Part shown: positions 2,822 through 61,450 of the stretch, piece by piece
Layout: every line of letters begins with the position of its first letter
How positions within the stretch are numbered: position 1 is the stretch's first letter
From: Candidatus Uhrbacteria bacterium RIFOXYB12_FULL_58_10
Lineage (GTDB): Bacteria; Patescibacteriota; Patescibacteriia; UBA9934; GWF2-40-263
Direction of reading: 5' to 3'
Length of the DNA: 61,450 nucleotides
Assembly (NCBI GenBank): GCA_001791645.1
Contig: MGFA01000021.1
Coordinates: forward strand, 1-61,450
Program-made: the position numbers and the translations under genes
The notes under the pieces: generated by a model
Seen by the model: the letters and a program-made list of their open reading frames with translations, nothing else
The model's database searches: none
Told to the model about the DNA's origin: nothing

Positions 2822-2862
2822 CTTGGTCACCCCCTGTCCCGGTCTGTAGGAACAGGTCGTGA

Positions 2863-2936
2863 TGGTTCCGGGACATGGATTCGAACCATGATTAAGGGAT
2901 TCAGAGTCCCTCGTCCTGCCGTTAGACGATCCCGGA
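2863..2936 (-). tRNA. tRNA-Gln(CTG)
   Basis: TCCGGGA/TCCCGGA acceptor stem, anticodon arm GGGA-CTCTGAA-TCCC, GGTTCGAATCC T arm, encoded CCA. Confidence 0.95.
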
Positions 2937-46015: not shown

Positions 46016-46110
46016 GCCAACCTTTATCCCTTGCGTCGCGGAATCGTCCTTGCTATACTCTCCACGCCGGAACCATTCCGGGGTAGCTCAGCGGTAGAGC
46101 AGTGGACTGT

Positions 46111-46578
46111 GGCACGCGTTTGTCGACTTTATTGAAAAATATGGCCGACAAGCGAACCTACGCCCAACGTGCAGAAACGATAAAGCGCGCAGTCAGTAAG
46201 CGTCGGAAGAACGTTCGGACGCCGGCCATCGAGTATCTTGGTGGCAGGGGTCAGAATTGCATACTGATTTGCGCGAATTGTCATCGCGAAGCGCACGCGG
46301 GCATTACGCAGCTTCCGGCGGAGACGTCGGAATGAAACAGGGTGAATTGTCCCGCGTAAAAAGTGGGATCCCGCAACAGGCGGTGACTGGAAGCCGTCGT
46401 CGGTAACGACACGGTAATCAGCAGCCAAGCTCGATCATCGGGTCGAGAAGGTTCAGAGACTATCCTTTCGAGGAGTACCTCTCCGGCAAACGCTGGGGCG
46501 GGAAGCGCCCTGCATCCATGCTCGTTTGAGAAGGATGAAGATATAGTCCACGCTTTCGGGAAACCGAGAGACCACGTG
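46111..46578 (+). ncRNA. Group I self-splicing intron (468 nt) at tRNA position 35/36
   Basis: U before the 5' splice site, terminal G, Q AATCAGCAGCC (46416), R GTTCAGAGACTA (46451), S AAGATATAGTCC (46538), P3 CAGGGTG/CGCCCTG, P9 GAAA hairpin, IGS ATTACGCAG (46303). Confidence 0.93.
46141..46335 (+). pseudogene. Internally deleted HNH homing-endonuclease ORF inside the intron
   Basis: ...AIEYLGG joined almost directly to CILICANCHREAH; the first CxxC and the HH core are missing. Confidence 0.7.
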
Positions 46579-46613
46579 TAATCCATTGGTCATGGGTTCG
46601 AATCCCATCCCCG

Positions 46614-46718
46614 GAGCCATGAGAAGGCGTGTGAGGTGACCCACATGCCTTGTCAAAAAGTCGTCATTAAAAAATGGCGATTTTTTGTTTAATCCTTGAG
46701 CAAATAGCGACCCTTGGT
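46614..46718 (+). repeat. Direct repeat R1 (105 bp) starting in the tRNA-Asn 3' end
   Basis: 103/105 identical to 50596-50700; contains the hairpin AAAAAGTCGTCATT...AATGGCGATTTTTT. Confidence 0.93.
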
Positions 46719-46930
46719 GGCTTGCCAAGAATTCCAAAACTCCCAGAACACAAATTAATGGCCGTCGATGCCGTAGAGGCTCGTAACGGGTCTATATTAG
46801 CCGCATACAATTCCTATGTCCGAAATGCTGGTTAGTTCTTTGGTTCAACTGTGCATCTTGCACAACAGGAGTCGCGGAGGAGGCAAATAAATATCTAATA
46901 ATTCTAGTTCGTGTTACTATTTTCTACGAT

Positions 46931-47602
46931 ATGCTATCAAAAACAGAATTGAAAAGATTAGAAAAGAGAGCCTGCAAGCCGACTCCACTAAACGAAAAAG
47001 GATTTAATCCAAAAGCAAACATTCCTTTCGGATGTACGACCGATGCCGTACGAAAAGCAATGCAGGACTATTTGGATTTTTTGAGCCATATAAACCTAAA
47101 GCTTCATTCGAAAAATATCGAGAGACTCGAATCTTTTGTGATGATGGCTAATTTCAGCAGTATAGTAGGTGAATTCATGGGTGCTAGCATTCCAAAGTAC
47201 TGTCAGACAATATTACGGAACGAATATCATAATGGTCATCCAGATTTGATCCCAACGAATCGCTACCCGAAAAATTCAATTTTGCATGGTGAGGACGGAA
47301 TCGAGATAAAGGCTTCAAGACACGTCAGTGGGTGGCAAGGTCACAACCCAGAGGCTTGTTGGTTACTGGTTTTCATTTTTGAAAGCAATACACCACGCGA
47401 TTCAGCAGCAGGCAGTCCTCCCATTCCATTCAAATTCAAAGAAGTACTTGGAGCGCAACTTAAAGTCGAGGACTGGACTTTTTCTGGTCGCTCAGCGACG
47501 AGTAGGCGAACTATCACCGCGAGTGTGAACAGGAGTGGGTATGAAAAGATGAAAAGGAATTGGATTTATCGAGATGACTCATCTTCAAGTGTCGTTGAGT
47601 AA
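46931..47602 (+). CDS. Putative type II restriction endonuclease (PD-(D/E)xK fold)
   Basis: GHPDL...GIEIKAS motif, 223 aa, convergent with and overlapping a DNA methyltransferase gene. Confidence 0.72.
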   Translation: MLSKTELKRLEKRACKPTPLNEKGFNPKANIPFGCTTDAVRKAMQDYLDFLSHINLKLHSKNIERLESFVMMANFSSIVGEFMGASIPKYCQTILRNEYHNGHPDLIPTNRYPKNSILHGEDGIEIKASRHVSGWQGHNPEACWLLVFIFESNTPRDSAAGSPPIPFKFKEVLGAQLKVEDWTFSGRSATSRRTITASVNRSGYEKMKRNWIYRDDSSSSVVE

Positions 47603-49129
47603 CGACAACTTCGGCACGGCCTTTTTTGCCAGATCAAAATACTCTGAGTTCACTTCAATTCCAATTGATTCAAGTCCACACGCGTTTGCCGCAGCGAGCG
47701 TCGATCCAGATCCCATGAATGGATCTAGTATGATTCCCTTACCCAAAGGCAAAGAGGCATAAACGATTTTTCGCAAAAACGATTGCGGTTTTAGACTTGG
47801 GTGCCCTGCGAGTTTTCGTTCATGTTGAGAAGTGCGTTCGCTAGGAATTAAATCCTCGAACGGATTGCCATTGGGAAGGCGGCGAAGTCCTCCTGTTCCA
47901 AATTTTCGCAAAGAATCTTGGACGCGCATGCCAGCGGGGAGCTTACTACGAAAGATACCCCACGGTTCATAGCATCCCCTTGGTAAGGAACAAACGTTCG
48001 TGAATTCTTCCTCAGCATTTTTTGGTCTGTCCCCACCGCGCAAAGTTCGTACTAATCGCATTGTCTGCCCCCTAAACTCAAGACCGCCGTCTTCCAGAGC
48101 TCTATAAACAAGAGGTGCAATGAAAGCATTGTTCGCAATGAACACATGCCCTCCCGGTTGAAGAATTCTGCCGGACTTCTCAGCAAGTTTTCTGAAAAAA
48201 TTGTAAATTCTAGAGCGTTCTTTTTCGTTAAGTGCTGTAAATCTAGGTAACGGTGATCGGGTATGGCCATCAAAGGAAGGCGGAACTCTCCAAACACCCC
48301 CGCTTCCGTTTTTCATTTTCTTGAGCTGATCCGTATCAAACTCTACAACACCGTAAGGCGGATCTGTAACTATTGCGTGAATGCTATGTGGAGCGGCATT
48401 ATCCATCCATTCAAAGCAATCCGCATGGAATAATCGAGACAAGCCGATCTTTTCGGACGGGTAATCGCGACGTAGTTGGTTGGTTTTTTGGTTATCCAGT
48501 AGCGATTCTTGAAAAAGTGTTTTTGGTACTTCACTGGTAAAACTTTTAATCACATCTACAACAGTTCCTTGAATTGTGAGACGGGATGGTTGAATAAAAA
48601 TTGGCTTTAAATCTGGATTGGCTGGCTGAAGTCTGACCCGATTCTTTTCTTTGTAATATTGTTTTAATGTAGTTTCTGATCCATCAATCAACGCGACGAT
48701 TTTTTGACCGTTCTCTGCTACTTGTTGATTTCGAATAATTACAACATCGCCGTCATTTATATTTTCGTCAATCATGCTATTGCCAGAGACTCGAAGAGCG
48801 TAGGTGTCTCCGGACCTTGGCAGCTTTGATCGTGGAACTGCTATTGTTTCATTCTCTGCAATCGCCTCGATTGGCTTTCCAGCGGCGATCGTTCCGAGTA
48901 ATTGTACTTGGACCAGAGAGTCGTTATCCGGCAAGGTAAGAGCTCGGGCTCTATTTTCGACCTTCTCAAGATGACCGCCATTTTTTAACTTTGAAACATG
49001 AAAATGGGCTGTCGAAACAGAAGCAAATTTAAAATGTTTCTGGATCTCCTCGAGAGATGGCGAATATCCCTTCTTTTTAGAAGAACTTCTTATGAAGTCG
49101 AGTACTTCTTTTTGACGTTTGGTTTGCAT
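47585..49129 (-). CDS. LexA repressor fused to a beta-class (N4C/N6A) DNA methyltransferase
   Basis: LexA wHTH (TKRQKEVLDFI...GYSPSLEEI), IAAG cleavage site, GNSM Ser, TTLK Lys; then DPPY, HPSLKP, DPFMGSGST in the same frame. Confidence 0.93.
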   Translation of the reverse strand: MQTKRQKEVLDFIRSSSKKKGYSPSLEEIQKHFKFASVSTAHFHVSKLKNGGHLEKVENRARALTLPDNDSLVQVQLLGTIAAGKPIEAIAENETIAVPRSKLPRSGDTYALRVSGNSMIDENINDGDVVIIRNQQVAENGQKIVALIDGSETTLKQYYKEKNRVRLQPANPDLKPIFIQPSRLTIQGTVVDVIKSFTSEVPKTLFQESLLDNQKTNQLRRDYPSEKIGLSRLFHADCFEWMDNAAPHSIHAIVTDPPYGVVEFDTDQLKKMKNGSGGVWRVPPSFDGHTRSPLPRFTALNEKERSRIYNFFRKLAEKSGRILQPGGHVFIANNAFIAPLVYRALEDGGLEFRGQTMRLVRTLRGGDRPKNAEEEFTNVCSLPRGCYEPWGIFRSKLPAGMRVQDSLRKFGTGGLRRLPNGNPFEDLIPSERTSQHERKLAGHPSLKPQSFLRKIVYASLPLGKGIILDPFMGSGSTLAAANACGLESIGIEVNSEYFDLAKKAVPKLSLLNDT

Positions 49130-49154
49130 AGTCTTGACGGCGTTAAGTTCACTC

Positions 49155-49183
49155 ACCATAATAGAAAAAAAGTAGAAAGTCAA
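49155..49183 (-). promoter_or_regulatory. lexA-MTase promoter with candidate operator
   Basis: TTGACT-N17-TATGGT with TTCTA-N6-TTCTA filling the spacer. Confidence 0.6.
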
Positions 49184-49210
49184 TCACTAACTTATTCACA
49201 CCTTTATCGT

Positions 49211-49417
49211 ATGGCAAAGTCTAACAAAAATTCCGGAAAACCATGGAGCTCCTCTGATCAGAACCAACTCGGGAAGCTAGCAAAGCAAAATACACCAACG
49301 CGGGTTATTGGTTTGAAGCTTGGTCGAACACCTGATGGTGTTCGTGGCATGGCTCAGAAGCTCGGGGTTAGCCTTAAACCTACGAATCAGGCCCCGTACA
49401 ACCGACGAAAATCGTAG
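49211..49417 (+). CDS. Small basic Myb/HTH-like protein (68 aa)
   Basis: GKPWS...IGLKLGRTPDGVRGMAQKLG. Confidence 0.75.
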   Translation: MAKSNKNSGKPWSSSDQNQLGKLAKQNTPTRVIGLKLGRTPDGVRGMAQKLGVSLKPTNQAPYNRRKS

Positions 49418-49430
49418 TCAATTTTTGAAT

Positions 49431-50306
49431 ATGGCACTTTTAAACAAAAATCACATCAAATCGGTTGTTGCTGTTGGCACACTGAAGGACGACGGAAGTT
49501 TTGCGTGTGACTCCACAAGTTTCCTCGTCGGCTTCTTAATCACAAATAGTGATGATCCGAAGCAAAAGCTTTATAGAACTTTTTTGGTGACAAACAGACA
49601 TGTATTTGAGAAACGAAAAAAAGCGTGGCTACGATTCAACAAAGACGACGGCAAAGGAATGATTTTTGACATCGATCTGAATTTTGAGAATGGTGATACG
49701 CGATGGTTGGCGCATCCCGATCCAGAAGTCGATCTCGCACTACTTAGCATTAGCCCGGCCGCGCTTAAACAAAACAACGTGCAACCCACCTTCATTTCTG
49801 AGGAAATGTTTGGATACAGCGGTAAATTTGAGGAAATTGGTATCGCTGTTGGTGACGAGGTGTTTGCGATTGGATTTCCAATGGGATTCGCGGGTGAGGT
49901 ACAAAACTATCCGTGTGTTAAGGCTGGTCTTATTTCCAGGATAGACCAGGAGATAATCAAGAAACGAAAGGCATTCGTCGTCGATTCATCTATCTTCCCA
50001 GGTAATAGTGGCGGCCCAGTGATTCTAAAGCCCACCATCACATCATTAAGCGATACGAAAGCCGTCGGTCAGCCATTTTTACTTGGGGTTATTAGTGGTT
50101 ATCTCACATATAGCGAGCAGCTTTTTACGCATCAGACGAATCCTCCAACAGTGGTAAGCTCGACCCGGGAAAATTCGGGTTTAAGTTTTTGTGTCCCGAT
50201 GGATTTTGTAAGGGAAATATATGATATATGGCTGATGAACCAAAAACCGGTGGAAGAGCCACAAAAAAGTACCACACCAGAGGATCTTAAAGAAAAGGCG
50301 AGCTAG
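49431..50306 (+). CDS. Trypsin-like serine protease, no signal peptide
   Basis: TNRHV (His), DLAL (Asp), PGNSGGP (Ser). Confidence 0.88.
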   Translation: MALLNKNHIKSVVAVGTLKDDGSFACDSTSFLVGFLITNSDDPKQKLYRTFLVTNRHVFEKRKKAWLRFNKDDGKGMIFDIDLNFENGDTRWLAHPDPEVDLALLSISPAALKQNNVQPTFISEEMFGYSGKFEEIGIAVGDEVFAIGFPMGFAGEVQNYPCVKAGLISRIDQEIIKKRKAFVVDSSIFPGNSGGPVILKPTITSLSDTKAVGQPFLLGVISGYLTYSEQLFTHQTNPPTVVSSTRENSGLSFCVPMDFVREIYDIWLMNQKPVEEPQKSTTPEDLKEKAS

Positions 50307-50309
50307 AGC

Positions 50310-50432
50310 AATCTCATATTTTGGCCGATGGGTGTCCGAGTATTCCAACGCCTGCGCGTCGGTCAAATCCTCTCCCCGCTCCTTCTTCCAAAGCTCCTTA
50401 AACGACTGAATCCGTTCGTCATTTGTGCGCAT
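50310..50432 (-). pseudogene. Fragment of a small mobile-element-type protein
   Basis: MRTNDERIQSFKELWKKERGEDLTDAQALEY, then the frame runs on antisense into the protease gene. Confidence 0.4.
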
Positions 50433-50595
50433 AGGATTATTGTGAAAAGCCCTTGAAACCATCGTATCCATGATTTGAGACACAGGCCATTCTCGTGTCT
50501 CATTTGTCTCATTTCGATGAGACCCGGGTGCCAGTTTGACCCCTCTAAAAGACCCCTCAAACATTGTCGTAAAGTGAGTTCGAGACCCGTACGCC

Positions 50596-50799
50596 GAGCC
50601 ATGAGAAGGCGTGTGAGGTGACCCACATGCCTTGTCAAAAAGTCGTCATTGAAAAATGGCGATTTTTTGTTTAATCCTTGAGCAAATGGCGACCCTTGGT
50701 AGACCATCAAAAAACCGAACCGCCTGGGACGCAAAGTCGTCGAATTTTTCTTAAACGCCCGAAACTGCAAATTCGCCCTATTTTTTCGGTTCGATCCCC
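50596..50799 (+). repeat. Repeat R2 (R1-like part plus R3-like part)
   Basis: 50596-50700 matches R1; 50677-50799 matches 55387-55510; T-loop-like GTTCGA at both ends. Confidence 0.92.
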
Positions 50800-50850
50800 G
50801 ACCACAGTTCTCGGTGGATTAATCACGCAATTTAAGGTACATTTTGCATC

Positions 50851-51774
50851 ATGAAATCCATCATTCTCAACACCGATGCCAAGATGCCCATTTTGGGATT
50901 AGGCACTTGGAATGCTCCGAAAGATAAAGTTGGCTTGGCTGTAAAACAAGCTTTATTAGACTTCGGGTATTCACATATCGATTGCGCCCATGTTTACGAG
51001 AACGAAAAAGAAGTCGGACAGGTTTTTCATGAAGTATTCAGTACAGGTCAGCGAACAAGAGAGGAAATCTTCGTGACGAGCAAGCTTTGGAATTACGATC
51101 ACGCGAAAGAGGATGTTGTGAATGCGTGCAAGCAGACGTTAGTCGATTTGCAACTCAATTATCTTGATTTGTATCTCATGCATTTTGGCGTCGCTTCGCC
51201 TCATGGCATGGGTATCGAGCCGCTCGATGCCAATGGCGTGCTGATAACGGCAAAAGTTTCCATTCGTGAAACATGGGAAGCGATGCAGAAGCTTGTGGGT
51301 ATGGGTCTCGTCAAAGCGATTGGTGTCTCAAACTTCACCGTACCAATGCTTGTTGATCTCCTGACGTACGCCGAGATCATCCCGGCGATGAATCAGATCG
51401 AGCTTCACCCATACAATCAACAGACCAAGTTAGTTGAATTCTGCAAACAACAGAATATCGCCGTGACCGCTTATTCTCCGCTCGGTTCTCAAGCAGAGAT
51501 GAATAATGGCAAGCTGGCTCTCCTTGAGGATGAAAAAATTAATGAAATTGCAGCCGCTCACGGAAAGACTCCGAGTCAAATATTACTTCGTTGGGGTATT
51601 CAACGAGAAACCGTTGTGATCCCAAAAAGCACGACCCTCGAGCATATCAAGGAAAATAATGAGGTGTTTGATTTTATTTTGTCGGATGACGAGCTTTTGA
51701 AGATTTCGTCTTTAGAGCGCGGTCTTCGCTATGTGGATCCGTATGAGTGGTGGAAGATTCCATATTTTGGATAG
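50851..51774 (+). CDS. Aldo/keto reductase
   Basis: GLGTW, IDCAHVY, TSKLW, YLDLYLMH, IGVSNF, NQIELHP, IPKS. Confidence 0.96.
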   Translation: MKSIILNTDAKMPILGLGTWNAPKDKVGLAVKQALLDFGYSHIDCAHVYENEKEVGQVFHEVFSTGQRTREEIFVTSKLWNYDHAKEDVVNACKQTLVDLQLNYLDLYLMHFGVASPHGMGIEPLDANGVLITAKVSIRETWEAMQKLVGMGLVKAIGVSNFTVPMLVDLLTYAEIIPAMNQIELHPYNQQTKLVEFCKQQNIAVTAYSPLGSQAEMNNGKLALLEDEKINEIAAAHGKTPSQILLRWGIQRETVVIPKSTTLEHIKENNEVFDFILSDDELLKISSLERGLRYVDPYEWWKIPYFG

Positions 51775-51785
51775 GAAATAAAGTT

Positions 51786-52373
51786 ATGAATCCTCTTATT
51801 ATTTTTGGAATCCTAGCGGGAGTTTTCAGCGCAATTTCATACCCTCCTTACATCATTGCCATTTTCAAGGGCAAGGCGAAGCCGGAGCGAGCTTCGTGGT
51901 TGATTTGGAGCGTGCTGACCGCCATGGGCTTTTTTACCCAGCTTGCCGTGGGTGCCACCAACTCACTTTGGCTACCGGGCATTCAAGGAATCGGTGTCAT
52001 AATTGTCTTTCTCTTATCCATTCGCTATGGATTCGGAGGTCTGCTAAAAAGAGACATAGCAACTCTTGTTGCGGCGGGACTAACCTTGCTGATCTGGTAT
52101 GTAACCGACAACGCCATCCTCGCTGTGTATTTAACCGTCTTAATTGACGGCATGGGCGCGTGGCTAACCATCATTAAGTCGTACGAGCACCCGGAAAGCG
52201 AGACGTTGATTACATGGGCACTTTCTGGAACGGGCGGGTTCTTTGGGCTTCTGGCGGTCGGCGCTTACAACATGCCAGTTCTCGCATATCCGTTCTATAT
52301 TTTCTTATGTAATTTTGCTGTAGTGGCGGCTATACTTCTTGGTAGGAAAAAACTTGCAAAACTCGTTGTATGA
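51786..52373 (+). CDS. Multi-pass membrane protein (PQ-loop-like)
   Basis: About 7 hydrophobic segments; PY...KP...SW and IKSY..P.SE motifs. Confidence 0.75.
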   Translation: MNPLIIFGILAGVFSAISYPPYIIAIFKGKAKPERASWLIWSVLTAMGFFTQLAVGATNSLWLPGIQGIGVIIVFLLSIRYGFGGLLKRDIATLVAAGLTLLIWYVTDNAILAVYLTVLIDGMGAWLTIIKSYEHPESETLITWALSGTGGFFGLLAVGAYNMPVLAYPFYIFLCNFAVVAAILLGRKKLAKLVV

Positions 52374-52951
52374 ATTCATCCGCATCTCGAATGGTAATTT
52401 TCTTCAATCGATTTCCACTTTTAGAAAAGACCCTTACTGCCCTGAACCAGGCAAATATTCCTTTCGCTATAGGTGGTAGCGGTTGCTTGTTTCTTTTTGG
52501 TAACGAACGCTTACCAGATGATGTTGATATCTATCTTCCAAACGATAGACACGACGAAGCAGATCGGCTTTTCAGCATTACATCCTTTCCATACCGCTCA
52601 GAACAGGAAGAGGTTCGAAATTCCAACGTTGACGGAGATCACTCGATTCAGCTCACGAGCAGTCTCATCCTGAAGATTGGCGGCAAGAATTACGATCTTG
52701 CGTTGACTAAGGATACAGAATCAATGCGGCTTGAGATGGAATACACAGGACAAAAAGTATTCTTGTATCCACCCGAGGACGTTCTGCTGATTAAAGCTTT
52801 GCTACAGCGTGGTCTGGATGTTGGTAAACACGACATTGAGGATATTCGGAATTTTATGAAAATCTATCCGAATCTTCGAATGGATTATCTTGAAAAACGC
52901 ATCTTGAGTCTTGATGCAAAAGATCGCGTTGGAAATATCTTTGGAGGGTAA
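52370..52951 (+). CDS. Putative nucleotidyltransferase (Pol-beta fold)
   Basis: IGGS...RLPDDVDI and C-terminal K...KHDIED. Confidence 0.65.
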   Translation: MNSSASRMVIFFNRFPLLEKTLTALNQANIPFAIGGSGCLFLFGNERLPDDVDIYLPNDRHDEADRLFSITSFPYRSEQEEVRNSNVDGDHSIQLTSSLILKIGGKNYDLALTKDTESMRLEMEYTGQKVFLYPPEDVLLIKALLQRGLDVGKHDIEDIRNFMKIYPNLRMDYLEKRILSLDAKDRVGNIFGG

Positions 52952-53047
52952 ATCAAGGCTCTCTACGCTGAGAATATGTATATTTTTTCTGATAGAATCT
53001 GGTTTCCTGTAAAGGATGGCCTAGTTTTTCTTTAGTATAAAATTATT

Positions 53048-54109
53048 ATGGAAGGACGAAATAGCCCAGACGCGAGTTCATCACTTGAAAATCGAGATAA
53101 ACGCAGCGAAGTGCTACGGAGGCTGATGAAATACGCAAAGAATGTCGAAGGATTCCAAGGAAAAACCGCTGGAGAAGTTTTTGACTCAAAAAATGAACAG
53201 TCGCGTAGAGAGCTCCTGAAAGATTTATCTGCTGAACAGTACTGTCAGCTAATAGCGGGTATCAACGGTGTTTTGCGAGGAAGAGATCAGAAAGATTGGG
53301 ACATGGACGGCGTGGGAGTGACAGCCGCCGGACACGAAGTAGTTGGAAAACATATTTTTCCTCGTCACGAGGATAAAATAGAAATCATGACGAAAGTATG
53401 GGAAGCGGCACAAGCAATGAATGTCGAAGGACGTGATCTGGAAGACATCGGCATGCTCCTTGGCTCTATGCTTGTGGAGGTGCATCCATTTGCCGATGGC
53501 AATGGTCGTACGAGCCGTCTTGTTTATACCTTGGTAAAAGATGGTTACTCAGAAGAAAAGTTGAGGGCTGTTTTAGGAGAAGAGGGTCGAGAAGAAGTCG
53601 ATATGGCGCTTACGAAGGTGGACGTCAACGAGCTTTTTGAGAAAAAACATGGAAGAGGAAACGTCGTGGTAAATCCGGAGAGCATCCATGGGATTCTGCC
53701 TGACGACGGAGCTCCCCCATATAGCGGTCTAACTTTCCCCGAAGGTACCGATCAGGAGGTACATGAAAGCATCATAGAGGCGGGAAGAAACGATGAGCGT
53801 ATCTTTACGGCTGCCATTTTGGAGTTTCTTCGCACACGTGAATGGTTGAGTGCGCAGGAACTCGTAAAGTCGTACGGGCAAAGAAAAGTCCTTTTGGTTC
53901 AAAAGCTTCTCTCTGTACTTACCGCGGAGGAGACCAATGAACTCGAAAAAACCTATTGGAATCTCAAAAAGACCTATACGGAAGAGATGATCGACATCTT
54001 CGTTCACCCCGACAAGCCGGAACACAAAGTCAGGGGTGACGATTCTGAAAGACGCTTGCTTGATGTCTTCAAGCAGAGGATCGCCGAGCGAACTATGCTT
54101 ATCGAGTAG
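53048..54109 (+). CDS. Fic-domain protein
   Basis: Canonical HPFADGNGRTSR. Confidence 0.88.
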   Translation: MEGRNSPDASSSLENRDKRSEVLRRLMKYAKNVEGFQGKTAGEVFDSKNEQSRRELLKDLSAEQYCQLIAGINGVLRGRDQKDWDMDGVGVTAAGHEVVGKHIFPRHEDKIEIMTKVWEAAQAMNVEGRDLEDIGMLLGSMLVEVHPFADGNGRTSRLVYTLVKDGYSEEKLRAVLGEEGREEVDMALTKVDVNELFEKKHGRGNVVVNPESIHGILPDDGAPPYSGLTFPEGTDQEVHESIIEAGRNDERIFTAAILEFLRTREWLSAQELVKSYGQRKVLLVQKLLSVLTAEETNELEKTYWNLKKTYTEEMIDIFVHPDKPEHKVRGDDSERRLLDVFKQRIAERTMLIE

Positions 54110-54278
54110 GTTTAGGCCTTAGTAGCTAATTGAAAACTGAAACTTTGGAACTTCTCCATGCTCATTTTGACCATCGGATAGATACTCAATAGTTCGGTAA
54201 GTACGTAAGAACTGGAGCCAAGTGGGGCCGACCAGAGCAATTTGGTCGGTTTTACTTTTGCTTATCAATTTCAAATGA

Positions 54279-54330
54279 AACTTTATAGAGTTGTGTATAT
54301 TTTGACTAACTTTATAAAGTTTGATAAAAT
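54279..54330 (+). promoter_or_regulatory. Promoter with two 14-bp palindromic operators
   Basis: AACTTTATAGAGTT (54279) and perfect AACTTTATAAAGTT (54308) within TTGACT-N17-TAAAAT. Confidence 0.72.
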
Positions 54331-54350
54331 CGTCGGGTAACTGAATTCAT

Positions 54351-55289
54351 ATGACGACCCGTCAAAAACTTGAGGTCATAAAAATTTCGTTGGGGGTAAC
54401 CCAAACCAAACTCGCCGAAAGATTCGGTGTGTCTTTTGCGGCATTCAACAGTTGGTGGACCGGCAAATCCGTTCCGCGCCAAAAGATGCTCGCCGCCATT
54501 GAAGATTTATTTTTGGAAGTGACTGGCGAGAAGTTAATTTCTGATGAACAGCTCCTCGCAAAAAAGAAGGAACTGCGCCAAAAGTCGGCCGCACACAAGA
54601 GCATCATCGGAGAAATTTTGGACCATCCGGACATTCGTGACCAATTCATCCTCAAGCTCACCTACCACACGAACCGAATCGAAGGGAGCACACTAACCGA
54701 ACCAGATACGGCTGCGATTTTGTTTGATAATGCTGCATTGCCTGACAAAACCTTGACCGAGCATCTTGAGGCGAAAAATCATCAGACAGCCCTAAATTAC
54801 TTGTTTGAGCACGTTCAAAAAAAAAAGAAGCTTGATGAGGACTTTGTTCTAAAAATCCACGGGATTCTCATGAACGGCGTACGACCGGACGCAGGTTTGT
54901 ACCGTCTTCATGCTGTTCGTATTGTTGGCGCTAATGTACCGACGGCCAATTATCTTCGCATCCCTGATTTGATTCCGGATGTCATGAAAGAAGTCGCGAA
55001 GTCTCAAAAAACGAGTGACATCGTCGGGGTTATAGCCACTGTTCATGCGCGATTCGAACAAATCCACCCATTTTCCGATGGTAATGGCCGAGTCGGGCGT
55101 TTACTCATGAACGCGATGCTTCTTACGGCCAATTTCGCTCCGGCCGTCATTCGTCAGGAACAAAAGCGATTGTATTATACCTATCTCCAGAAAGCTCAAA
55201 CGATAGGCGATTGCAGCCAGCTGGAGGATTATCTCTGTGATGCCGTAAAAGATGGATTTGAAATTTTAGAACGTGTGGATAGGAAATAA
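54351..55289 (+). CDS. XRE-HTH plus Fic protein (class II-like)
   Basis: TQTKLAERFGVS HTH, TNRIEG inhibitory motif, HPFSDGNGRVGR. Confidence 0.9.
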   Translation: MTTRQKLEVIKISLGVTQTKLAERFGVSFAAFNSWWTGKSVPRQKMLAAIEDLFLEVTGEKLISDEQLLAKKKELRQKSAAHKSIIGEILDHPDIRDQFILKLTYHTNRIEGSTLTEPDTAAILFDNAALPDKTLTEHLEAKNHQTALNYLFEHVQKKKKLDEDFVLKIHGILMNGVRPDAGLYRLHAVRIVGANVPTANYLRIPDLIPDVMKEVAKSQKTSDIVGVIATVHARFEQIHPFSDGNGRVGRLLMNAMLLTANFAPAVIRQEQKRLYYTYLQKAQTIGDCSQLEDYLCDAVKDGFEILERVDRK

Positions 55290-55386
55290 CAATAAGATGG
55301 TGAAATATGAAACTCTCACCCTAAAATAACCCCTCAACTATTGCTGAATTCTAGGTCGAGACAAGTTCGTCGAACCATGTTTAAAG

Positions 55387-55514
55387 CTTGAGCAAATAAC
55401 GACCCTTGGTAGTCCACCCAGAAAGCCGAAGCACCCGGGACGCAAAATCATCGAATTTTCCTCAAACGTCCGAAACTGCAAATTTGCCTTATTTTTTCGG
55501 TTCGATCCCCATCC
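55387..55514 (+). repeat. Repeat R3, a diverged copy of the distal part of R2
   Basis: CTTGAGCAAAT...CGACCCTTGGTAG...CCGAAACTGCAAATT...TTTTTTCGGTTCGATCCCC. Confidence 0.88.
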
Positions 55515-55540: not shown

Positions 55541-56005
55541 TTATTCCGCTGTCGGAGTTGTGGGAGGAGTGCCAAGCGAAGATCCTTCTGGAAGAATCTG
55601 AATCGTACTCGCCGTCACGCTTCCATCATCGTTACTAGTTCCCGTGACCGTGATCGTCGTCCCCGTTGTAAGATCCGCTGAGGAGCCTTCCGTCATTTCG
55701 TTGATCTTGGATACATCCGAGAAGAAGACCAGCTTGGAGCCACCGTCAGGAAGCTTGATCGTCATGCTTTCAGCATCCACTGAGAGGATCTCACCACTTA
55801 CGAACCCGCCACCGGCTTGGCTTCGTGCAAAGCCGCCCATTCCGCCGGACATCCCGGATCGCTGGCTTGGATCGAAATCACCGAAACGCGATGCAAGGTC
55901 ACTCATGTCTGGGGTCTGCGATTTGGCATATTGCATGCCACCAAAGAACGCGCCTCCACCCACGATAACGGCCGTAGCGATGACACTGAGAAGAATCTTT
56001 TTCAT
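55541..56005 (-). CDS. Membrane-anchored small protein (DUF5666-like OB fold) of the exporter operon
   Basis: TM ending FFGGMQY, GEILS...KLPDGGSK, DGSVTA. Confidence 0.72.
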   Translation of the reverse strand: MKKILLSVIATAVIVGGGAFFGGMQYAKSQTPDMSDLASRFGDFDPSQRSGMSGGMGGFARSQAGGGFVSGEILSVDAESMTIKLPDGGSKLVFFSDVSKINEMTEGSSADLTTGTTITVTGTSNDDGSVTASTIQILPEGSSLGTPPTTPTAE

Positions 56006-56023
56006 AGAAACATTGATAAATAA

Positions 56024-57241
56024 TTATTCATAACGTAAGGCCACGATCGGGTTCAGCCCGGCGGCGCGTCGTGCCGGGTAGTATCCGAAGATGATACCGA
56101 TGGCGGCCGAGACACCGAACGCAAGGAGAACCGACGACCATGAGACGCTCGTGCTGACAATCCCCAGCGCCGAAACGACGTAGGAAATGCCAAGACCAAG
56201 CGCAATACCGATGATTCCTCCCGCGAGCGTCAACATGACGGATTCAACGAGAAACTGCTGTTCAATCTCTTTGCGCTTGGCGCCGATCGCCTTGCGCAAG
56301 CCGATTTCTTTCGTGCGTTCCGTGACGCTCGTGAGCATCATGTTCATGATGCCGATGCCTCCCACAACAAGAGAGATCCCAGCAACGGCCGCAAGAAGGG
56401 TCGTAAACGTTTCCGTGACGCTTGAGGCAGTCGCGATGATGTCGGCTTGGTTCAAGATGCTAAAGTCTGCCGACGCCGCATCAAGGTGATGTCGGCTAAG
56501 CAAAAGATTCGTGATTTCCGTTTCCAATTCATCAACCGTTTTTTCGCTCGTTGCCTGTACGGAGATGCTCGTCACGTACTCGTCGCCAGAGAAATATCGC
56601 TGTGCCGTTGAAAGCGGGATGAAGATCATGTCATCTTGGCTTGAGAACGAGCTGCCACCTTTCGCGACGGTCACTCCAACGACGGTAAACTGGCTCCCGT
56701 TGATACGAATCGTTTGTCCAACGGGGCTAACACCTTCTCCGAAGAGATCTGTACTAACCGTAGGACCAAGCACCGCCACCTTGGCAACACTTGCTTGCTG
56801 TTGATCGGTAATAAAACTCCCTTCGGCCACCTGCACGTTTCGTACTCCCGTGTAACTGGATGTCGTACCGACAATGGACGTATTCGTATTGGTTCCTTTG
56901 GCCGCCACCTGATAGCGGGAGCTGACTTCCGGCGCGACGGCTTGAGCTACCGAGATTTCATCCGCGATTGCCTGCGCATCTTCCGCGGTCAACGACTTCG
57001 CCGAACCGCGCTGCGTGGCAACGCCTCCGAATGAGCGTTGTGATCCCGGCTGAACTTGGATGAGGTTTGCTCCGATTGATTGAATGCTCGCCTGGATGGA
57101 CGCCTGCGATCCTTGCCCGATGGACACCATGGCGATCACCGAGCTAATGCCAATGATGATGCCGAGGGTCGTTAAACCCGAGCGCACCTTGTTACTGGAA
57201 AGCGCGAGAAATGTTTCTTCGAGCAAGTCAGAAATAATCAT
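56024..57241 (-). CDS. MacB/FtsX-family ABC permease
   Basis: RSGLTTLGIIIG, GGIGIMNMML.SVTERTKEIGLRKAIGA, YPARRAA. Confidence 0.95.
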   Translation of the reverse strand: MIISDLLEETFLALSSNKVRSGLTTLGIIIGISSVIAMVSIGQGSQASIQASIQSIGANLIQVQPGSQRSFGGVATQRGSAKSLTAEDAQAIADEISVAQAVAPEVSSRYQVAAKGTNTNTSIVGTTSSYTGVRNVQVAEGSFITDQQQASVAKVAVLGPTVSTDLFGEGVSPVGQTIRINGSQFTVVGVTVAKGGSSFSSQDDMIFIPLSTAQRYFSGDEYVTSISVQATSEKTVDELETEITNLLLSRHHLDAASADFSILNQADIIATASSVTETFTTLLAAVAGISLVVGGIGIMNMMLTSVTERTKEIGLRKAIGAKRKEIEQQFLVESVMLTLAGGIIGIALGLGISYVVSALGIVSTSVSWSSVLLAFGVSAAIGIIFGYYPARRAAGLNPIVALRYE

Positions 57242-57918
57242 ACGAGTTTGTCGCTTTCAATCTTTCCGTCCCGAATGAAGATGATCCTGTCGGCGTGCTG
57301 CGCCACATCTGGCTCGTGCGTGATGAGGATGATGGTGCGCTTCTCTTCGCGGTTAAGTTTGCGGAACGTTTCAAGGACGATTTGTCCGGTTTGGGTATCA
57401 AGGTTTCCCGTCGGTTCGTCGGCGAGAATAAGCGACGGCTGGTTGACGAGCGCACGAGCGATTGCTACGCGCTGAATCTGGCCACCTGAGAGCTGGTTGG
57501 AGAGATGATGGAAGTATTGCTCGTCGAGTCCTGCTGATTTCAAGGCTGCCTTGGCGACCTTTTCACGCTCTTCTTTAGGAATTTGTTTGTAAACGAGAGG
57601 GAGCGTCACATTGCGCAGAGCGCTTGCGCGTGGCAAGAGGTTGAACGCCTGAAAGACGAACCCGATATGCTCGCGGCGAATGTCCGCCAGCTCATCTTCG
57701 GACAACGTGGACACGTCTTTGCAGTCGAGAACGTAGGTTCCGCTCGTCGGCGTATCCAGTGCGCCCAAAATATGCATGAGCGTACTTTTGCCTGAGCCAG
57801 ACGGTCCCATGATTGCCACAAACTCCCCGTCGCGGATAGTGAAGCTCACCCCTTTGAGAGCATCAAAGGATCCTGCGCCAGTTACGTACGTTTTAGTGAC
57901 GTTCCTTACTTCAATCAT
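57238..57918 (-). CDS. ABC transporter ATP-binding protein (LolD/MacB type)
   Basis: GPSGSGKST, LSGGQ, LADEPTGNLD, ITH. Confidence 0.96.
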   Translation of the reverse strand: MIEVRNVTKTYVTGAGSFDALKGVSFTIRDGEFVAIMGPSGSGKSTLMHILGALDTPTSGTYVLDCKDVSTLSEDELADIRREHIGFVFQAFNLLPRASALRNVTLPLVYKQIPKEEREKVAKAALKSAGLDEQYFHHLSNQLSGGQIQRVAIARALVNQPSLILADEPTGNLDTQTGQIVLETFRKLNREEKRTIILITHEPDVAQHADRIIFIRDGKIESDKLV

Positions 57919-57922
57919 ACAT

Positions 57923-59902
57923 TTAGCGAGGGAACGAGCCACTGAATCCACCCGAGGGGCCGCCACCACTATTCAACAAACTTGGGGCAGATGAAGCGGA
58001 GGTTGAGGTCGCGGTATCCGTTACGGTTCTCGTGACGACATACTCGCCAGCGTTCAAGCCGGAGACGATTTCACTTTGTGTATCGTTGGAAAGACCAACT
58101 TCAACCGTTACCTGTCGTGGCAGAGTGTCTGATGTGACACCCCGCGTTCCGCCGGTTTCCGTTGCACCATCAAGAACTTCGACGTAAGAGGAATCACCGT
58201 ATGACTTCACTGCGCTACTCGAAACCACGACGACGTTTTGTCGAATGTCGGTGATGATAGAGATATTTGCGCTCATGCCGGAGAGTACTCGTTCGTCTTC
58301 GGTATCAAGGGCAATGAGTACGTTGTAGCTTACGACGCCTTGGGATACGGTGCCGATAGTATCGATTTGGATGACCTTTCCGGTCGTGGTCAGATCCTCG
58401 ATCGCATCGAACGTGAGCGTCGCGCGGTCGTCGATCGCGACTTTCGCCACATCAACTTCGTTCAGGGTCATCTGTGCCGTGAACTGGTCGGCCACAACGA
58501 TTGCGAGCGCGCTGCCCGAAGATTCCGTTTCACCAACGTGCAAACTGACGCTCGCCAACGTTCCGCTAATCGGAGCGCGAACCGTATATTCCGCCAAGTC
58601 CTCGAGCGCATCGTTATATTTGTTCTGTGCACTTTCAAGACTCAATTCTTGGGAGCGAACATCAAGACTGTCGGTATCGACCGAGAGATCCGCAAGCTGC
58701 TGTTCTCGTTCGGCGACCGTTTCCTTGGCTTCGGCAATCTCGTCTTCATCCGCGCCATCGGCAACGTCCTCGTAGTTTTCTTGTGCGGTCACGAGACTGA
58801 TCTCTGCTTCTTCAACGGTATCTTCGGCATCGGCAATTGAGTTTGGCGCGCTCAAGTCCGTTTCCTCGATGGTATTCGCTGAAGATTGTAGCGAGCTGAT
58901 AATGCCGTTCGTGGTAACGACATCCGCAGGAATAGTCGTCATCATTTCATCGATGTGGTCGGCGATAGCAGAATTCTCGTAGCCATTATCTTCGATGCGA
59001 TTCAAAAGAATCTGAGCACTGTTGAGCGCATTGGAAATATCTTCGGCGACCTGAAGCGTAAGCGTAATAACCTCCGCTTTGTCGTCCGTACTGCTGTCTC
59101 GGCATGAGTTTTGAAACGCAGACCACGCATCATCGTAAGAATCCTGCGCCGTGTCGTAATCGCTCAGCACATCGTCGGAATATGAAGAACTGGCCATCAA
59201 GTTGTAATACCCAATGTACTCCTCTTCGCTCTGTTCCGTGCCAATAAAGTCCGACAGATCTGTCATGAGACTTGTAATGTCCGCGAACGCTTCAGCCACG
59301 GCGTTGTAACCGTTCTCGGAAGCTGATTCGAGATCCTGTTCCGCCGAGGTCTGTACTTTGGTTAAGTTGCGTTCGGCTTGTTCCAAAGAACGCTGCGCGT
59401 TATCGATGTCATCCTGCGCATCGTCTAGTTCATCGTCGGTAGGGCTGTTTTCTAAATCGCTCAGCGTTCTCTGTGCTTGTGCAAGAGCATTTTCCGCCTG
59501 AAGGAGTGAGAGCGTGTCAGGATCTGCCATCAGCTTCTCGTAAGCGATCTGTGCGCTCTCAAGGCTGATTCTCGCGTCGCGTACGCTCTTTTGGGCATCC
59601 TTGGCATCAAGAACAGCAATGATGTCACCTTCCTCAAGCTGCTGCCCGTTTTTTGCGACGAGCTGTACGACTTTGCCAGACACTTCCGGCTTCACCTCGA
59701 TTTCCGCTTCGCCTTGAACCTGTCCGGTACCAGAAACATTCGTCGTAAGCGTTCCTTTCTCTGCGACTTCAAGAACATACCGCGCCTGTGCGGTATCGGT
59801 GCTGAATGCTCGAACGATGAGGATTCCTCCCCCTAACAATAAAATGCCTGCCAGTATTGCGGTTTTCTTTCGCTGACGGAGAAATTGATAAATACGTTGC
59901 AT
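57923..59902 (-). CDS. Efflux periplasmic-adaptor (MacA/HlyD-like) subunit with a very long acidic helical region
   Basis: N-terminal TM, lipoyl half motifs (SGKV...GD; VRAPISG), NEVD, VEVGLSND. Confidence 0.88.
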   Translation of the reverse strand: MQRIYQFLRQRKKTAILAGILLLGGGILIVRAFSTDTAQARYVLEVAEKGTLTTNVSGTGQVQGEAEIEVKPEVSGKVVQLVAKNGQQLEEGDIIAVLDAKDAQKSVRDARISLESAQIAYEKLMADPDTLSLLQAENALAQAQRTLSDLENSPTDDELDDAQDDIDNAQRSLEQAERNLTKVQTSAEQDLESASENGYNAVAEAFADITSLMTDLSDFIGTEQSEEEYIGYYNLMASSSYSDDVLSDYDTAQDSYDDAWSAFQNSCRDSSTDDKAEVITLTLQVAEDISNALNSAQILLNRIEDNGYENSAIADHIDEMMTTIPADVVTTNGIISSLQSSANTIEETDLSAPNSIADAEDTVEEAEISLVTAQENYEDVADGADEDEIAEAKETVAEREQQLADLSVDTDSLDVRSQELSLESAQNKYNDALEDLAEYTVRAPISGTLASVSLHVGETESSGSALAIVVADQFTAQMTLNEVDVAKVAIDDRATLTFDAIEDLTTTGKVIQIDTIGTVSQGVVSYNVLIALDTEDERVLSGMSANISIITDIRQNVVVVSSSAVKSYGDSSYVEVLDGATETGGTRGVTSDTLPRQVTVEVGLSNDTQSEIVSGLNAGEYVVTRTVTDTATSTSASSAPSLLNSGGGPSGGFSGSFPR

Positions 59903-59968
59903 ATGATTTCTTCAGGAGTGGCAACACTATAAAAAAACGCCAGTGAAGAAAGTGTAAAGAAGCGGCTA

Positions 59969-59998
59969 CCAAAAAACGCCCGCATGGGCGTTTTTTGG
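59969..59998 (-). terminator. Intrinsic terminator after the histidine kinase
   Basis: CCAAAAAACGCCC-GCAT-GGGCGTTTTTTGG. Confidence 0.75.
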
Positions 59999-60018
59999 AA
60001 GAACACTCCCCGATGTAA

Positions 60019-61011
60019 CTAGGAAGCGCGGGAGATGGGAAGCGTAATGACGACCCTCGTTCCTTTGTCAGGAACGCTCTGTATATCAATCTTGCCACGG
60101 TGGGCGCGTATCACAGCGTTGGCAATCGACAAGCCGAGCCCGCTGCCGCCAGTTCCGCGAGAACGACTCTTTTCTGCTCGATAGAAACGATCAAATACAT
60201 GCGCAATGTCTTCAGGTTTCATGCCAATGCCCGTGTCTTCGATTTCAATAATGGCTTGTGACTGTTCTTTTGAAAGACGAAATTCGATGCTCCCACCGGA
60301 TTTGTTGTAGCAAACTGCGTTCTTGAGAATATTGGCAATGGCCTGCGAGAGCATCTGCCTGTCGCCAAAGACGGTGACACCAGCATCGGCGTTCATGAAG
60401 CAATCGATATTGATGTCGTTTTTTGCCGCAAGTTCTGTAAATCGTTCAGCGGTTTCCCGAAGGAGCGATGCGAGTTCGATCTTTTCTTTGTTTTGAATGT
60501 TGATGTTGCGCTCCGCAAAATAGGAAAGTTGCAGCAAGTCCTCCACAAGTTGGGTCATGCGGTGTACCTCTTCAAGATGACTTTTAATTTTCTTTTCTTC
60601 TTTCGTGTCTTTATTTCTTCGCAATTGGCTTTCCAGTCCTGTTTGCAAAATGGCCAATGGGGTACGAAGCTCGTGCGAAGCATCGCCTAAAAATTGGCGT
60701 TGACGCTGATAGGCAGACCGAATCGGGCGAAGTGTTAGCCCCGCAAGGCCGTAACTGAGTAGCGCGGCGACAATAAGCAGCACGCCATTCACCATGAAAA
60801 TCGTGCTTTGAAAATCCTCCTGAATGTTGCGCATGTCTGGTCCCGGTGGCGGTAGGCGTTCTGTAACTTCTTGTCCCGAAGTCGACTCGTCAAATCGTGC
60901 ACGCAGACGCTCCGAAAAAATAGAGCGACTGATTCCGCTCGAAGAAGCCAAAATACCCGCAAGAATCGCCACATACACGATGGTGAGGACGATTCTTGTT
61001 TTGACGAACAT
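60019..61011 (-). CDS. Sensor histidine kinase
   Basis: Two TM helices, ASHELRTPL, N box, DTGIG, FDRFYR, GSGLGL. Confidence 0.95.
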   Translation of the reverse strand: MFVKTRIVLTIVYVAILAGILASSSGISRSIFSERLRARFDESTSGQEVTERLPPPGPDMRNIQEDFQSTIFMVNGVLLIVAALLSYGLAGLTLRPIRSAYQRQRQFLGDASHELRTPLAILQTGLESQLRRNKDTKEEKKIKSHLEEVHRMTQLVEDLLQLSYFAERNINIQNKEKIELASLLRETAERFTELAAKNDINIDCFMNADAGVTVFGDRQMLSQAIANILKNAVCYNKSGGSIEFRLSKEQSQAIIEIEDTGIGMKPEDIAHVFDRFYRAEKSRSRGTGGSGLGLSIANAVIRAHRGKIDIQSVPDKGTRVVITLPISRAS

Positions 61012-61015
61012 GAGG

Positions 61016-61450
61016 CTAGACGAGTCGGTAGCCTTTGCCCCAAACGGTTTCAATACGTTGCGCATATTCTTTTGGTAATTTCTTACGCAAATTCTTTACA
61101 TGGACGTTGACGACGTTACTGAATTCGTCATGAAATCTGTCCCACACGTGGGAAAGGATATCTTCCCGCGTGACGACAGCTCCACGATTACGCAGGAGAA
61201 GTTCCAGCAAGCCGAATTCCCGAAGCGTGACATCAAGCTTTTTCTTTTTTATCCAGACTTGCTGCGAACGGGTATCTAAACGCAAGTCATCGAGCTCAAG
61301 AACGTCTCCGGTTAGCTGCGGCGTTCGTCGAAGCACGGTACGCATGCGGGCAAGGAGCTCGTCGAAAGAAAAAGGCTTTACGAGATAATCATCTCCGCCG
61401 ATGTTGAGTCCCGCGATCTTGTCCTCTGTGGTATCGCGAGCAGTAAGAAA
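61016..61450 (-). CDS. OmpR-family response regulator (5' end beyond the window)
   Basis: LTARD...GGDDYLVKPF, REFGLL, NVVNVHVKNLRKK, ETVWGKGY. Confidence 0.93.
   Translation of the reverse strand, partial: FLTARDTTEDKIAGLNIGGDDYLVKPFSFDELLARMRTVLRRTPQLTGDVLELDDLRLDTRSQQVWIKKKKLDVTLREFGLLELLLRNRGAVVTREDILSHVWDRFHDEFSNVVNVHVKNLRKKLPKEYAQRIETVWGKGYRLV

Follow-up and report, generated by a model that had tools for sequence, protein, structure and literature searches.

How did a block of foreign DNA come to lie directly behind the tRNA-Asn gene of Candidatus Uhrbacteria bacterium RIFOXYB12_FULL_58_10, enclosed by two long direct repeats and with no integrase inside it? The window that we analyzed is a stretch of 61,450 nucleotides of this genome (contig MGFA01000021.1, assembly GCA_001791645.1), in which a first-pass annotation had noticed a defence module between two 105-bp repeats. 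Here we argue that this module, called island 1 throughout (46620-50601), is probably a member, devoid of a recombinase, of a family of small integrative elements that sit at the 3' ends of tRNA genes in Candidatus Uhrbacteria. As judged from sequence comparison, the repeat is an element-borne left-end module (module A) and not a duplicated host target: it is made of two copies of a near-invariant family left end, and therefore implies no target duplication. We consider island 1 to be a recombinase-less derivative because a large serine recombinase (LSR) is encoded by relatives that share its ends, islands 1 and 2 (the latter being the unit that follows) carry none, and the genome has no intact one of that type.

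The two repeat copies (Table 1) differ at two of their 105 positions, and a pattern search allowing up to three mismatches matched these two sites only. None of 100 dinucleotide-preserving shuffles of the window gave any match of that length, so that the repeats as first described were upheld by exact search and by the expectation from chance. A repeat search lengthens the match to 126 nt (93% identity; 46593-46718 and 50575-50700, spacing 3982), the extra 21 nt upstream being tRNA-like and of partial likeness, with about seven positions differing between the copies. The first copy begins, as claimed at first pass, in the 3' end of a real tRNA-Asn: joining 46077-46110 to 46579-46619 yields a canonical 75-nt tRNA-Asn(gtt), which ARAGORN did not call because a 468-nt group I intron splits the gene. 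The second copy begins in a tRNA-like sequence different from tRNA-Asn, which had also been recognized and which is the conserved right end of island 1 (module RE). A third and partial copy (55378-55510) consists of the last 33 nt of the 105-mer and about 100 nt of a further module, B (86-87% identity), and a fourth copy of module A stands 3' of tRNA-Gln(ttg) on contig C3, with low-G+C DNA thereafter to the end of that contig. Both further copies, the intron and the low-G+C block described below had escaped notice at first pass. The order in the window is tRNA-Asn, A, island 1 and RE; then A, B, island 2 and a decayed RE; then the tail of A, a second module B (B') and a third imported block that continues to the contig end. 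Read from its sequence, the locus is a head-to-tail array of at least three units, of which island 1 is the first. The G+C content is 44-46% across 46.6-55.5 kb, spanning the two islands, versus 55-65% upstream, and the block is absent from the tRNA-Asn loci of two genomes of the same genus (G003 and G004), which agrees with the earlier view of a foreign block at a tRNA 3' end with att-like bounding repeats. What is refined in that view is the origin of the repeat: its copies are indeed att-like, but they are the left-terminal modules of two tandem related elements and not the duplication left by one insertion.

Such an array could in principle be produced by the assembler, if a free circular or foreign copy of island 1 had been threaded between two copies of A. 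The read-level data consisted only of contigs of groundwater and soil runs, of which four were used (X3, X7, X8 and X10). The repeat is longer than assembler words and the contigs of all four runs break inside A, leaving the pairing of left and right flanks unconfirmed, while in X7 the island contigs have depths of 8.7-9.8 versus 4.3-5.0 for the RecQ flank, so that island 1 stands at about twice its flank. Against an artefact, contigs do span the passage from the tRNA to A and from A to island 1 (X3 records 9 and 10) and also the third junction, and in X3 island 1 and the chromosomal flank are of equal depth (10.0 vs 10.9), which argues against a free circle there. The copies moreover differ at two positions and have four distinct flanks, and junctions of the RE|A or pseudo-tRNA|A type, as well as tandem arrays, are found again in independent assemblies (G068, G059, G143, L076, L079 and L085). 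Within the stretch 46696-55319, the depth over island 2 relative to the RecQ flank was about 1.5-fold in X3 and 2.6-3-fold in X7. Higher island depth is likely due to related elements in other members of the community, depth being a hint only. Given the distinct flanks, the two differences and the same types of junction in independent assemblies, misassembly is unlikely, and we regard the threading of a stray copy as very improbable.

A combined search with RE, A and B gave matches in 27 of 100 relatives, across several families, A and B being 83-88% identical. The left border of A is always a tRNA-type end, G(A/G)(A/G)CCA. Module A stands directly 3' of a genuine tRNA-Asn in 6 of 10 loci fetched from relatives, 9 of 15 loci of a genome collection and 7 of 14 metagenome loci (three sets that overlap, some records recurring), and exact patterns of A and of RE had no match in a collection of viral contigs. 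It folds into two hairpins (-37.5 kcal/mol, z = -6.0), the second of which is followed by a run of T; a terminator scan called neither hairpin, so that the word terminator is here a reading of hairpin and T run. We have considered whether A and B might instead belong natively to tRNA-Asn as a functional trailer (for example, a small RNA transcribed with it, or a terminator) that elements have copied, the island having arrived by homologous recombination or through long attP/attB identity. The position of A behind genuine tRNA-Asn genes in many genomes would fit such a trailer, as would its strong structure, in whose first hairpin G-C pairs have changed to A-T on both strands (L060 and L079), and a conservation far above that of ordinary spacer DNA. 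This conservation, however, exceeds even that of the adjoining tRNA: among 12 loci of the type tRNA-Asn|A-B the mean pairwise identity was 95.5% for A, 82% for the tRNAs, which differ in their stems, and 76% for B. In two genomes of the same genus, G003 (with the intron) and G004 (intron-less), a plain hairpin and then a gene for a membrane protein come after tRNA-Asn, A, B and RE being missing there in both, and A was not found in 73 of the 100 relatives. It is also joined to tRNA-Gln(ctg) (G029), to tRNA-Gln(ttg) (C3 and L072), to pseudo-tRNA ends and to unrelated non-tRNA DNA sharing only GGAGCCA; its G+C content resembles that of the islands and not that of the host; and a module that we call A2 behaves alike at tRNA-Gln(ctg), with four copies in this genome and a patchy distribution among relatives. 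A native trailer is in our judgement improbable, and we return to A as a module carried by the elements. The comparison with relatives that the first-pass annotation had called for, on the ground that invariable content between the repeats would speak against it, revealed variable content behind the repeat: none of 161 other genomes of the order matched the island 1 cargo (46719 to about 50330), nine of these matched only the last ~240 nt of the island, which are the right-end region, and G003 and G004 have the tRNA-Asn with neither repeat nor island.

The right end is shared in a similar manner. RE (about 170 nt before the second GAGCCA) matches C7:295-423 at 84%, occurs also in G068, G059, G073 and G076, is 92-93% identical over 240-268 nt in G143 and G155, which belong to another family, and can be aligned with both G068 and G143; with the recombinase-bearing elements of contig C6 it has in common the motif GTCTCATTTGTCTCAT. 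The RE of C21 ends in GAGCCA beside tRNA-Asn, which also ends in GAGCCA, and the near-identical RE of C7 ends in GAACCA and abuts A2, the trailer of a tRNA-Gln(ctg) that itself ends in GAACCA. About 65 nt of RE, in decayed form, make up the right end of island 2. Taken together, the RE of island 1 and repeat copy 2 read like an attP-type junction. In the other genomes that share RE, this module overlaps the beginning of a gene, RE195, that reads inward and encodes about 165 aa; its place is invariably that of the first gene inward from the right end of an element without recombinase. Island 1 has a truncated form of it: the first 78 codons of the frame 50181-50564 are 87% identical to the full-length genes of G143 and G155, and then the alignment stops. 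Members of this gene family were located at L092:8700-9206, L093:9351-9881 and L028:5901-6353, and remnants at 50331-50432 of the window and at C7:15-270. A large protein collection contained 21 full-length homologues of RE195, none with a name or a Pfam family, and the sole Pfam hint was HTH_17 in one homologue (E = 0.008). A structural model from 23 sequences (pLDDT 89.7; an earlier one from six sequences was poor, with pLDDT 57.8) comprises a helical hairpin, a four-cysteine ribbon and a C-terminal winged helix. Foldseek with this model found no match at E <= 0.001, nor did a profile comparison with PDB sequences yield a significant one; only in the C-terminal ~52 residues is there a likeness, itself non-significant, to BldC, the Xis of mycobacteriophage Pukovnik and a DNA-binding protein of phage P2 (TM 0.61-0.68 on target, E 0.2-0.9). 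The model thus depicts RE195 as an orphan Zn-ribbon protein whose C-terminal domain resembles Xis.

Which recombinase belongs to these ends is seen in complete relatives. Five loci (L058, L059, L060=G059, L067=G024 and L081) consist of tRNA-Asn|A-B, one to three cargo genes and a recombinase gene on the opposite strand, whose products of 444 aa contain the domains Resolvase, Recombinase and Zn_ribbon_recom and share 92-100% identity among themselves; next to the 5' end of this tRNA-Asn-type gene there is RE-like sequence, and whole elements with the recombinase measure about 2.8-5.1 kb. The best NCBIfam model is CcrB (E = 8.4e-32, far below the family cut-off), and by its sequence the enzyme is an LSR of the CcrB/XisF kind. 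At C6:7423-15200 of the present genome a tRNA-Ser(tga) is followed by two tandem elements, each ending in an LSR of 468-469 aa; in each unit the LSR is followed by GTCTCATTTGTCTCAT, a pseudo-tRNA end and then the same sequence as after the real tRNA. One of these two recombinase frames has an internal TAA. Other serine-recombinase genes or fragments of the genome lie beside tRNA-Glu (twice), tRNA-Pro and the tRNA-Gln(ctg) of the window. As to the co-occurring recombinase, a check likewise proposed at first pass, LSR homologues are present in 13 of 66 A/RE loci of other genomes (567 kb), and homologues of the three tyrosine recombinases of this genome in none of the 66. Five of 100 relatives encode an LSR with 75% or more identity to the tRNA-Asn type, and all five have A or RE; LSR remnants occur in arrays without an intact recombinase (C15:297-509, L063, L072 and L073). 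Movement by a tyrosine recombinase encoded elsewhere, Xer-type or other, with the six nucleotides GAGCCA as overlap region, could explain why the 6-nt identity changes with the target (GAGCCA or GAACCA), and both the three tyrosine recombinases of the genome and the ACGCC/GGCGT inverted repeat around the junction would suit it. The empty count in the 66 loci and the LSR genes at the element ends of complete copies argue otherwise, making this very improbable. The tyrosine recombinases of this genome were also rejected as possible helpers, as they have no homologue in the 66 related loci.

The sequences show how these elements are built, that they form a family with which an LSR is associated, and that their modules are foreign to the host; on this basis we propose the following course of events. 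The elements insert at the extreme 3' end of tRNA genes ending in GAGCCA or GAACCA. Their left end is module A (100 nt with two hairpins), usually followed by module B, and their right end is RE, in which a GTCTCAT repeat, the promoter region of a gene that reads inward and the 3' end of a pseudo-tRNA are combined; this gene is the LSR itself where relatives are complete. We infer that the LSR joins the RE|A junction of a circular form to the end of the tRNA, which would recreate the tRNA and leave tRNA|A at the left border and RE|flank at the right one. A new element entering an occupied tRNA would have its RE placed against the A of the resident, and this presumed order of insertion would give the second '105-bp repeat'. 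Island 1 has kept both ends, the place of the recombinase being taken by a stump of 34 codons of RE195. If island 1 can move at all at present, its exit would be possible only through an LSR acting in trans or through homologous recombination between the copies of A, and either route would produce a 3982-bp circle with an RE|A junction. This circle is the crossover product that the first-pass annotation had predicted from the repeats; the HTH gene placed on it finds no family support. We would place strand exchange in or next to the six bases because the border of A is constant and the ends of RE match the targets. RE and the tRNA end have GAGCCA in common as their core, and ACGCC/GGCGT can be read on either side of the junction, the position of the crossover being inferred only.

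Several observations weigh against this scheme. No intact LSR of the tRNA-Asn type was found in this genome, where its only trace is a remnant of 71 residues on C15 (79% identical), and 22 of the 27 genomes with A or RE are without a close LSR. The two LSRs of C6 are only 52% identical to the tRNA-Asn type and have different junction sequences, and because they are divergent and act on other junctions, mobilization in trans has no identified helper here. The right ends beside tRNA-Asn-type LSR genes are only partly RE-like, and not all of them end in GAGCCA. Serine recombinases normally need only a shared core of 2 bp. Because 2 bp would suffice, the 6-nt match between RE and tRNA and the near-invariant 100 nt of A are not explained. 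No circle, empty site or joint of the 3982-bp type was seen in the contigs of X3, X7, X8 and X10, which end inside A and are uninformative either way. Last, the truncated RE195 of island 1 fits a dead remnant as well as a mobilizable element. Islands 1 and 2 may then be a fossil scar, that is, dead and fixed remnants in which the repeat has no present function, a view that shares its origin with ours and differs from it only on activity. Besides the truncated RE195, the decayed RE of island 2, the third copy without most of A and the lack of a cognate LSR in the genome are consistent with such a scar; the ends of island 1 are nevertheless intact, with 0-2 differences in 105 between its A and other copies and an RE 92-93% identical to copies in another family, and the 105-bp identity is still a substrate for RecA-type deletion. 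We deem a fossil possible, although we lean away from it. A bolder and rather doubtful conjecture is that the tRNA-Asn locus would be an LSR-run cassette platform, on which cassettes of 3-5 kb, stacked head to tail and each enclosed by A on the left and a pseudo-tRNA module on the right, are traded across families and A doubles as the tRNA trailer; recombinase-less cassettes would be working satellites, RE195 would recruit or steer a recombinase in trans, and the 6-nt core would set the landing site. We retain as the probable reading that island 1 is a recombinase-less derivative of an LSR-dependent element.

Table 1. Features of the tRNA-Asn array, with positions in the window and the support for each.
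Feature	Position	Strand	Support
tRNA-Asn(GTT) exon 1	46077..46110	+	97% identity with exon 1 in G003 and G004 (same genus)
Anticodon-loop group I intron containing a shortened HNH-like ORF (about 46141-46335)	46111..46578	+	Rfam, Pfam
tRNA-Asn exon 2, ending in GAGCCA, the attL junction	46579..46619	+	joined to exon 1, gives a canonical tRNA
Repeat copy 1: GAGCCA and left-end module A of island 1, two hairpins	46614..46718	+	repeat search, RNA fold
Putative type II restriction endonuclease, 223 aa	46931..47602	+	partial match to PADLOC REase_II (E 3.4e-7)
Fusion of LexA (DNA-binding domain and S24 peptidase) and N6/N4 DNA methyltransferase, 532 aa	47585..49183	-	Pfam, NCBIfam, PADLOC
Small ORF without family (the earlier 'HTH')	48998..49417	+	no Pfam, PADLOC or NCBIfam match
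Trypsin-like serine protease, defence candidate	49320..50306	+	Pfam Trypsin_2 E 1.1e-12; PADLOC PDC-S45 E 6.9e-30
Truncated 5' remnant of right-end gene RE195	50331..50432	-	34 codons kept from the start of the true frame
Right-end module RE of island 1: repeated GTCTCAT motif, then pseudo-tRNA 3' end finishing in GAGCCA	50433..50601	+	
Repeat copy 2: GAGCCA and module A of island 2	50596..50700	+	
Module B, after A in most relatives	50701..50799	+	87% identical to 55419-55510; ~80-88% in relatives
Island 2 cargo: aldo-keto reductase, membrane protein, 193-aa protein, Fic, HTH-Fic	50851..55289	+	Pfam
Decayed right-end module of island 2, ending in AACCA	55300..55377	+	last ~65 nt align with RE
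Repeat copy 3: last 33 nt of A and module B'	55378..55510	+	contigs of other runs bridge the junction (X3 record 12, X7 record 22)
Third imported block: DUF5666 protein, MacB, ABC ATPase, HlyD-type protein, two-component system	55541..61450 (contig end)	-	

The cargo of island 1 appears from its sequence matches to be a putative type II restriction-modification pair and a PDC-S45-like protease, for which 'defence module' was a fair label, the function being predicted. The methylase is clear: in the fusion protein Pfam recognizes LexA_DNA_bind, Peptidase_S24 and N6_N4_Mtase, the LexA part is a complete LexA (NCBIfam lexA equivalog, 179.6 bits vs a cut-off of 110.95), and the methylase part matches PADLOC MTase_II at E = 3.4e-96. 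The adjacent endonuclease gene, convergent with that of the methylase and overlapping it, has only its partial PADLOC match, and its product belongs to no Pfam or NCBIfam family. A separate host lexA is found at C19:42440-43042, and the fusion could tie the control of restriction-modification to DNA damage. The ORF at 48998-49417, which had been taken for an HTH gene, has no match in Pfam, PADLOC or NCBIfam. A 22-nt repeat (77% identity; 49210-49231 and 49430-49451) covers the likely start codons of this small ORF and of the protease gene. In the Pfam scan, none of the five ORFs of 46931-50564 had a tyrosine or serine recombinase domain, which sustains the initial observation that the block contains no integrase, and by Pfam, PADLOC and NCBIfam island 1 is without integration and transfer genes.

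Cargo is mosaic and variable in this family: that of island 1 has no counterpart in the 161 genomes compared, and the reductase and 193-aa genes of island 2 occur in elements of other genomes. The aldo-keto reductase has 88% amino acid identity to the cargo of the L059 element; for the 193-aa protein the counterparts are cargo of L058 and L063 (83-89% identity), in which a recombinase or the remnant of one comes next. The gene at 54351-55289 of island 2 matches PADLOC PDC-S04/SoFic (E = 3.1e-46), and no recombinase was found in island 2 or in the third block. The proteins of the third block are 82-93% identical to those of G029, a genome of a different genus in which the block lies directly after tRNA-Gln(ctg)|A-B, without islands 1 or 2. 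In eight same-genus genomes its MacB is only 38-43% identical to anything, the neighboring RecQ being 64-69% identical there, so the MacB/ABC/HlyD-type efflux cluster looks horizontally acquired, as far as sequence similarity can tell. The MacB genes of the same genus match instead the second copy that this genome has on C5. At the other end of the window (2380-2936, minus strand), tRNA-Gln(ctg) is followed by the two-hairpin module A2 (2785-2870) and a serine-recombinase fragment (2466-2714). The four copies of A2 in the genome include C7:417-500, C3:155-235 and C7:1558-1608, and it was found in 7 of 60 other genomes searched, that is, patchily. Because of A2 and the recombinase fragment at tRNA-Gln(ctg), both ends of the window contig are element arrays. 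On the metagenome contig L072, tRNA-Gln(ttg)|A is followed by ~1.8 kb of cargo and then a C-terminal remnant of a serine recombinase, an arrangement by which the start of C15 may lie next to the end of C3 in the genome. The far chromosomal flank of the array was sought through the DNA downstream of tRNA-Asn in G003 and G004, which had no blastn match in this genome and by tblastx matched only C1:83.3-83.8 kb, with no RE nearby, so that this search did not locate the flank.

The intron of the tRNA-Asn gene was recognized by Rfam (RF00028 at 46334-46570, 59.1 bits vs a gathering score of 50, E = 2.7e-13), and the Pfam HNH match of its ORF is weak (E = 0.0013, below cut-off). It is inserted between anticodon positions 35 and 36. 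Among relatives, G003 has an intron with a longer HNH ORF in the same place, G004 has none, and near the array of G068, a member of another family, there are an intron and an ORF homologous to these. ARAGORN called no other tRNA-Asn in the genome (1.12 Mb in 28 contigs). Among the literature matches listed for group I introns and tRNA-Asn, there were only organelle or unrelated papers.

To our knowledge, very little has been described on gene gain in bacteria of the Candidate Phyla Radiation (CPR), whose genomes are of about 1 Mb. The present results suggest one route, in which miniature LSR-dependent elements at the ends of tRNA genes, stacked in arrays, would bring genes for restriction, Fic proteins, proteases, efflux and redox functions from one family of Uhrbacteria to another; the arrays seem integrase-free because most units have lost the recombinase. 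Module A, more conserved than the tRNA that it adjoins, and the orphan RE195 are specific parts of this proposal that can be tested. If it is true that the recombinases target the last bases of tRNAs, they would be of interest as tools for site-specific integration with short conserved targets.

Among known systems, SCCmec inserts in rlmH by means of two recombinases (CcrAB) and forms composite tandem cassettes and recombinase-less pseudo-cassettes. The elements described here are likewise serine-recombinase cassettes at the 3' end of a conserved gene, with tandem and recombinase-less forms, and they differ in having a tRNA target, a much smaller size, one recombinase instead of two and a host of another phylum. 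Taken as elements defined by an LSR with Resolvase, Recombinase and Zn_ribbon_recom domains, the same-ended L030/L060, L032/L067, L058, L059 and L081 and the elements of C6 qualify, and island 1 does not. An integron was rejected, there being no tyrosine recombinase at the locus or in the 66 related loci and the units being of 3-5 kb with several genes. Compared with tRNA-targeted islands of the Islander type, as the excerpt of that work presents them (PMC4383910), the locus has a regenerated intact tRNA with foreign DNA right after CCA; only GAGCCA of the fragment at the far end is identical to the host tRNA, this fragment belonging to the RE of the element, and no integrase was found inside island 1 or island 2. 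The tycheposons of Prochlorococcus, of which 27 of 937 use an LSR and most a tyrosine recombinase according to the available part of Hackl et al. (bioRxiv 10.1101/2020.12.28.424599), are also small cargo elements that stack at tRNA genes of a streamlined genome and whose successive insertions leave partial tRNAs and fragmented integrases; unlike our elements, many of them carry replication genes, and that part of the account describes no 100-nt end module or RE195-type gene.

Decayed integrative and conjugative or mobilizable elements (ICEs and IMEs) that an integrase-encoding neighbor mobilizes in cis, known as CIMEs in the excerpt consulted (PMC5704250), resemble island 1 in lacking integration and transfer genes, in keeping both ends and in lying in tandem at a tRNA 3' end, and the accretion of ICEs and IMEs in that source also builds arrays by repeated site-specific insertion. 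By sequence both ends of island 1 are intact (A 103/105; RE 92-93% to G143 and G155). It is unlike the CIMEs there described in that its neighbors are without an integrase, conjugation genes are absent, and the recombinase of its family is a serine and not, as is mostly the case, a tyrosine recombinase. The closest precedent is that of the ssrA islands of Dehalococcoides, which, in the excerpt of McMurdie et al. 2011 (PMC3146451), lie in tandem behind the tmRNA gene and use an LSR of the CcrB family, some of them having no integration module and being proposed as cis-mobilizable. Both systems, as far as that excerpt goes, are low-G+C tandem arrays behind a single-copy t(m)RNA gene, bounded by a repeat that comprises the 3' end of the RNA gene and extra conserved sequence, with an LSR and with some units that lack it. 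They differ in the target, which is the T-loop of tmRNA in Dehalococcoides and here the last 6 nt of tRNA-Asn or tRNA-Gln (tRNA-Ser for the sister type); in the recombinase, which there belongs to a six-gene module by attL and here stands alone at the right end, reading inward; and in the size of 2.8-5 kb, the near-invariant two-hairpin left end of 100 nt and the CPR host found here. No paper among the literature matches listed describes elements of this sort in CPR/Patescibacteria. Set against these known systems, the present elements differ in their CPR host, their miniature size, a point of insertion at the very last tRNA bases, an ultra-conserved left module and the orphan gene RE195 at the right end in place of the recombinase.

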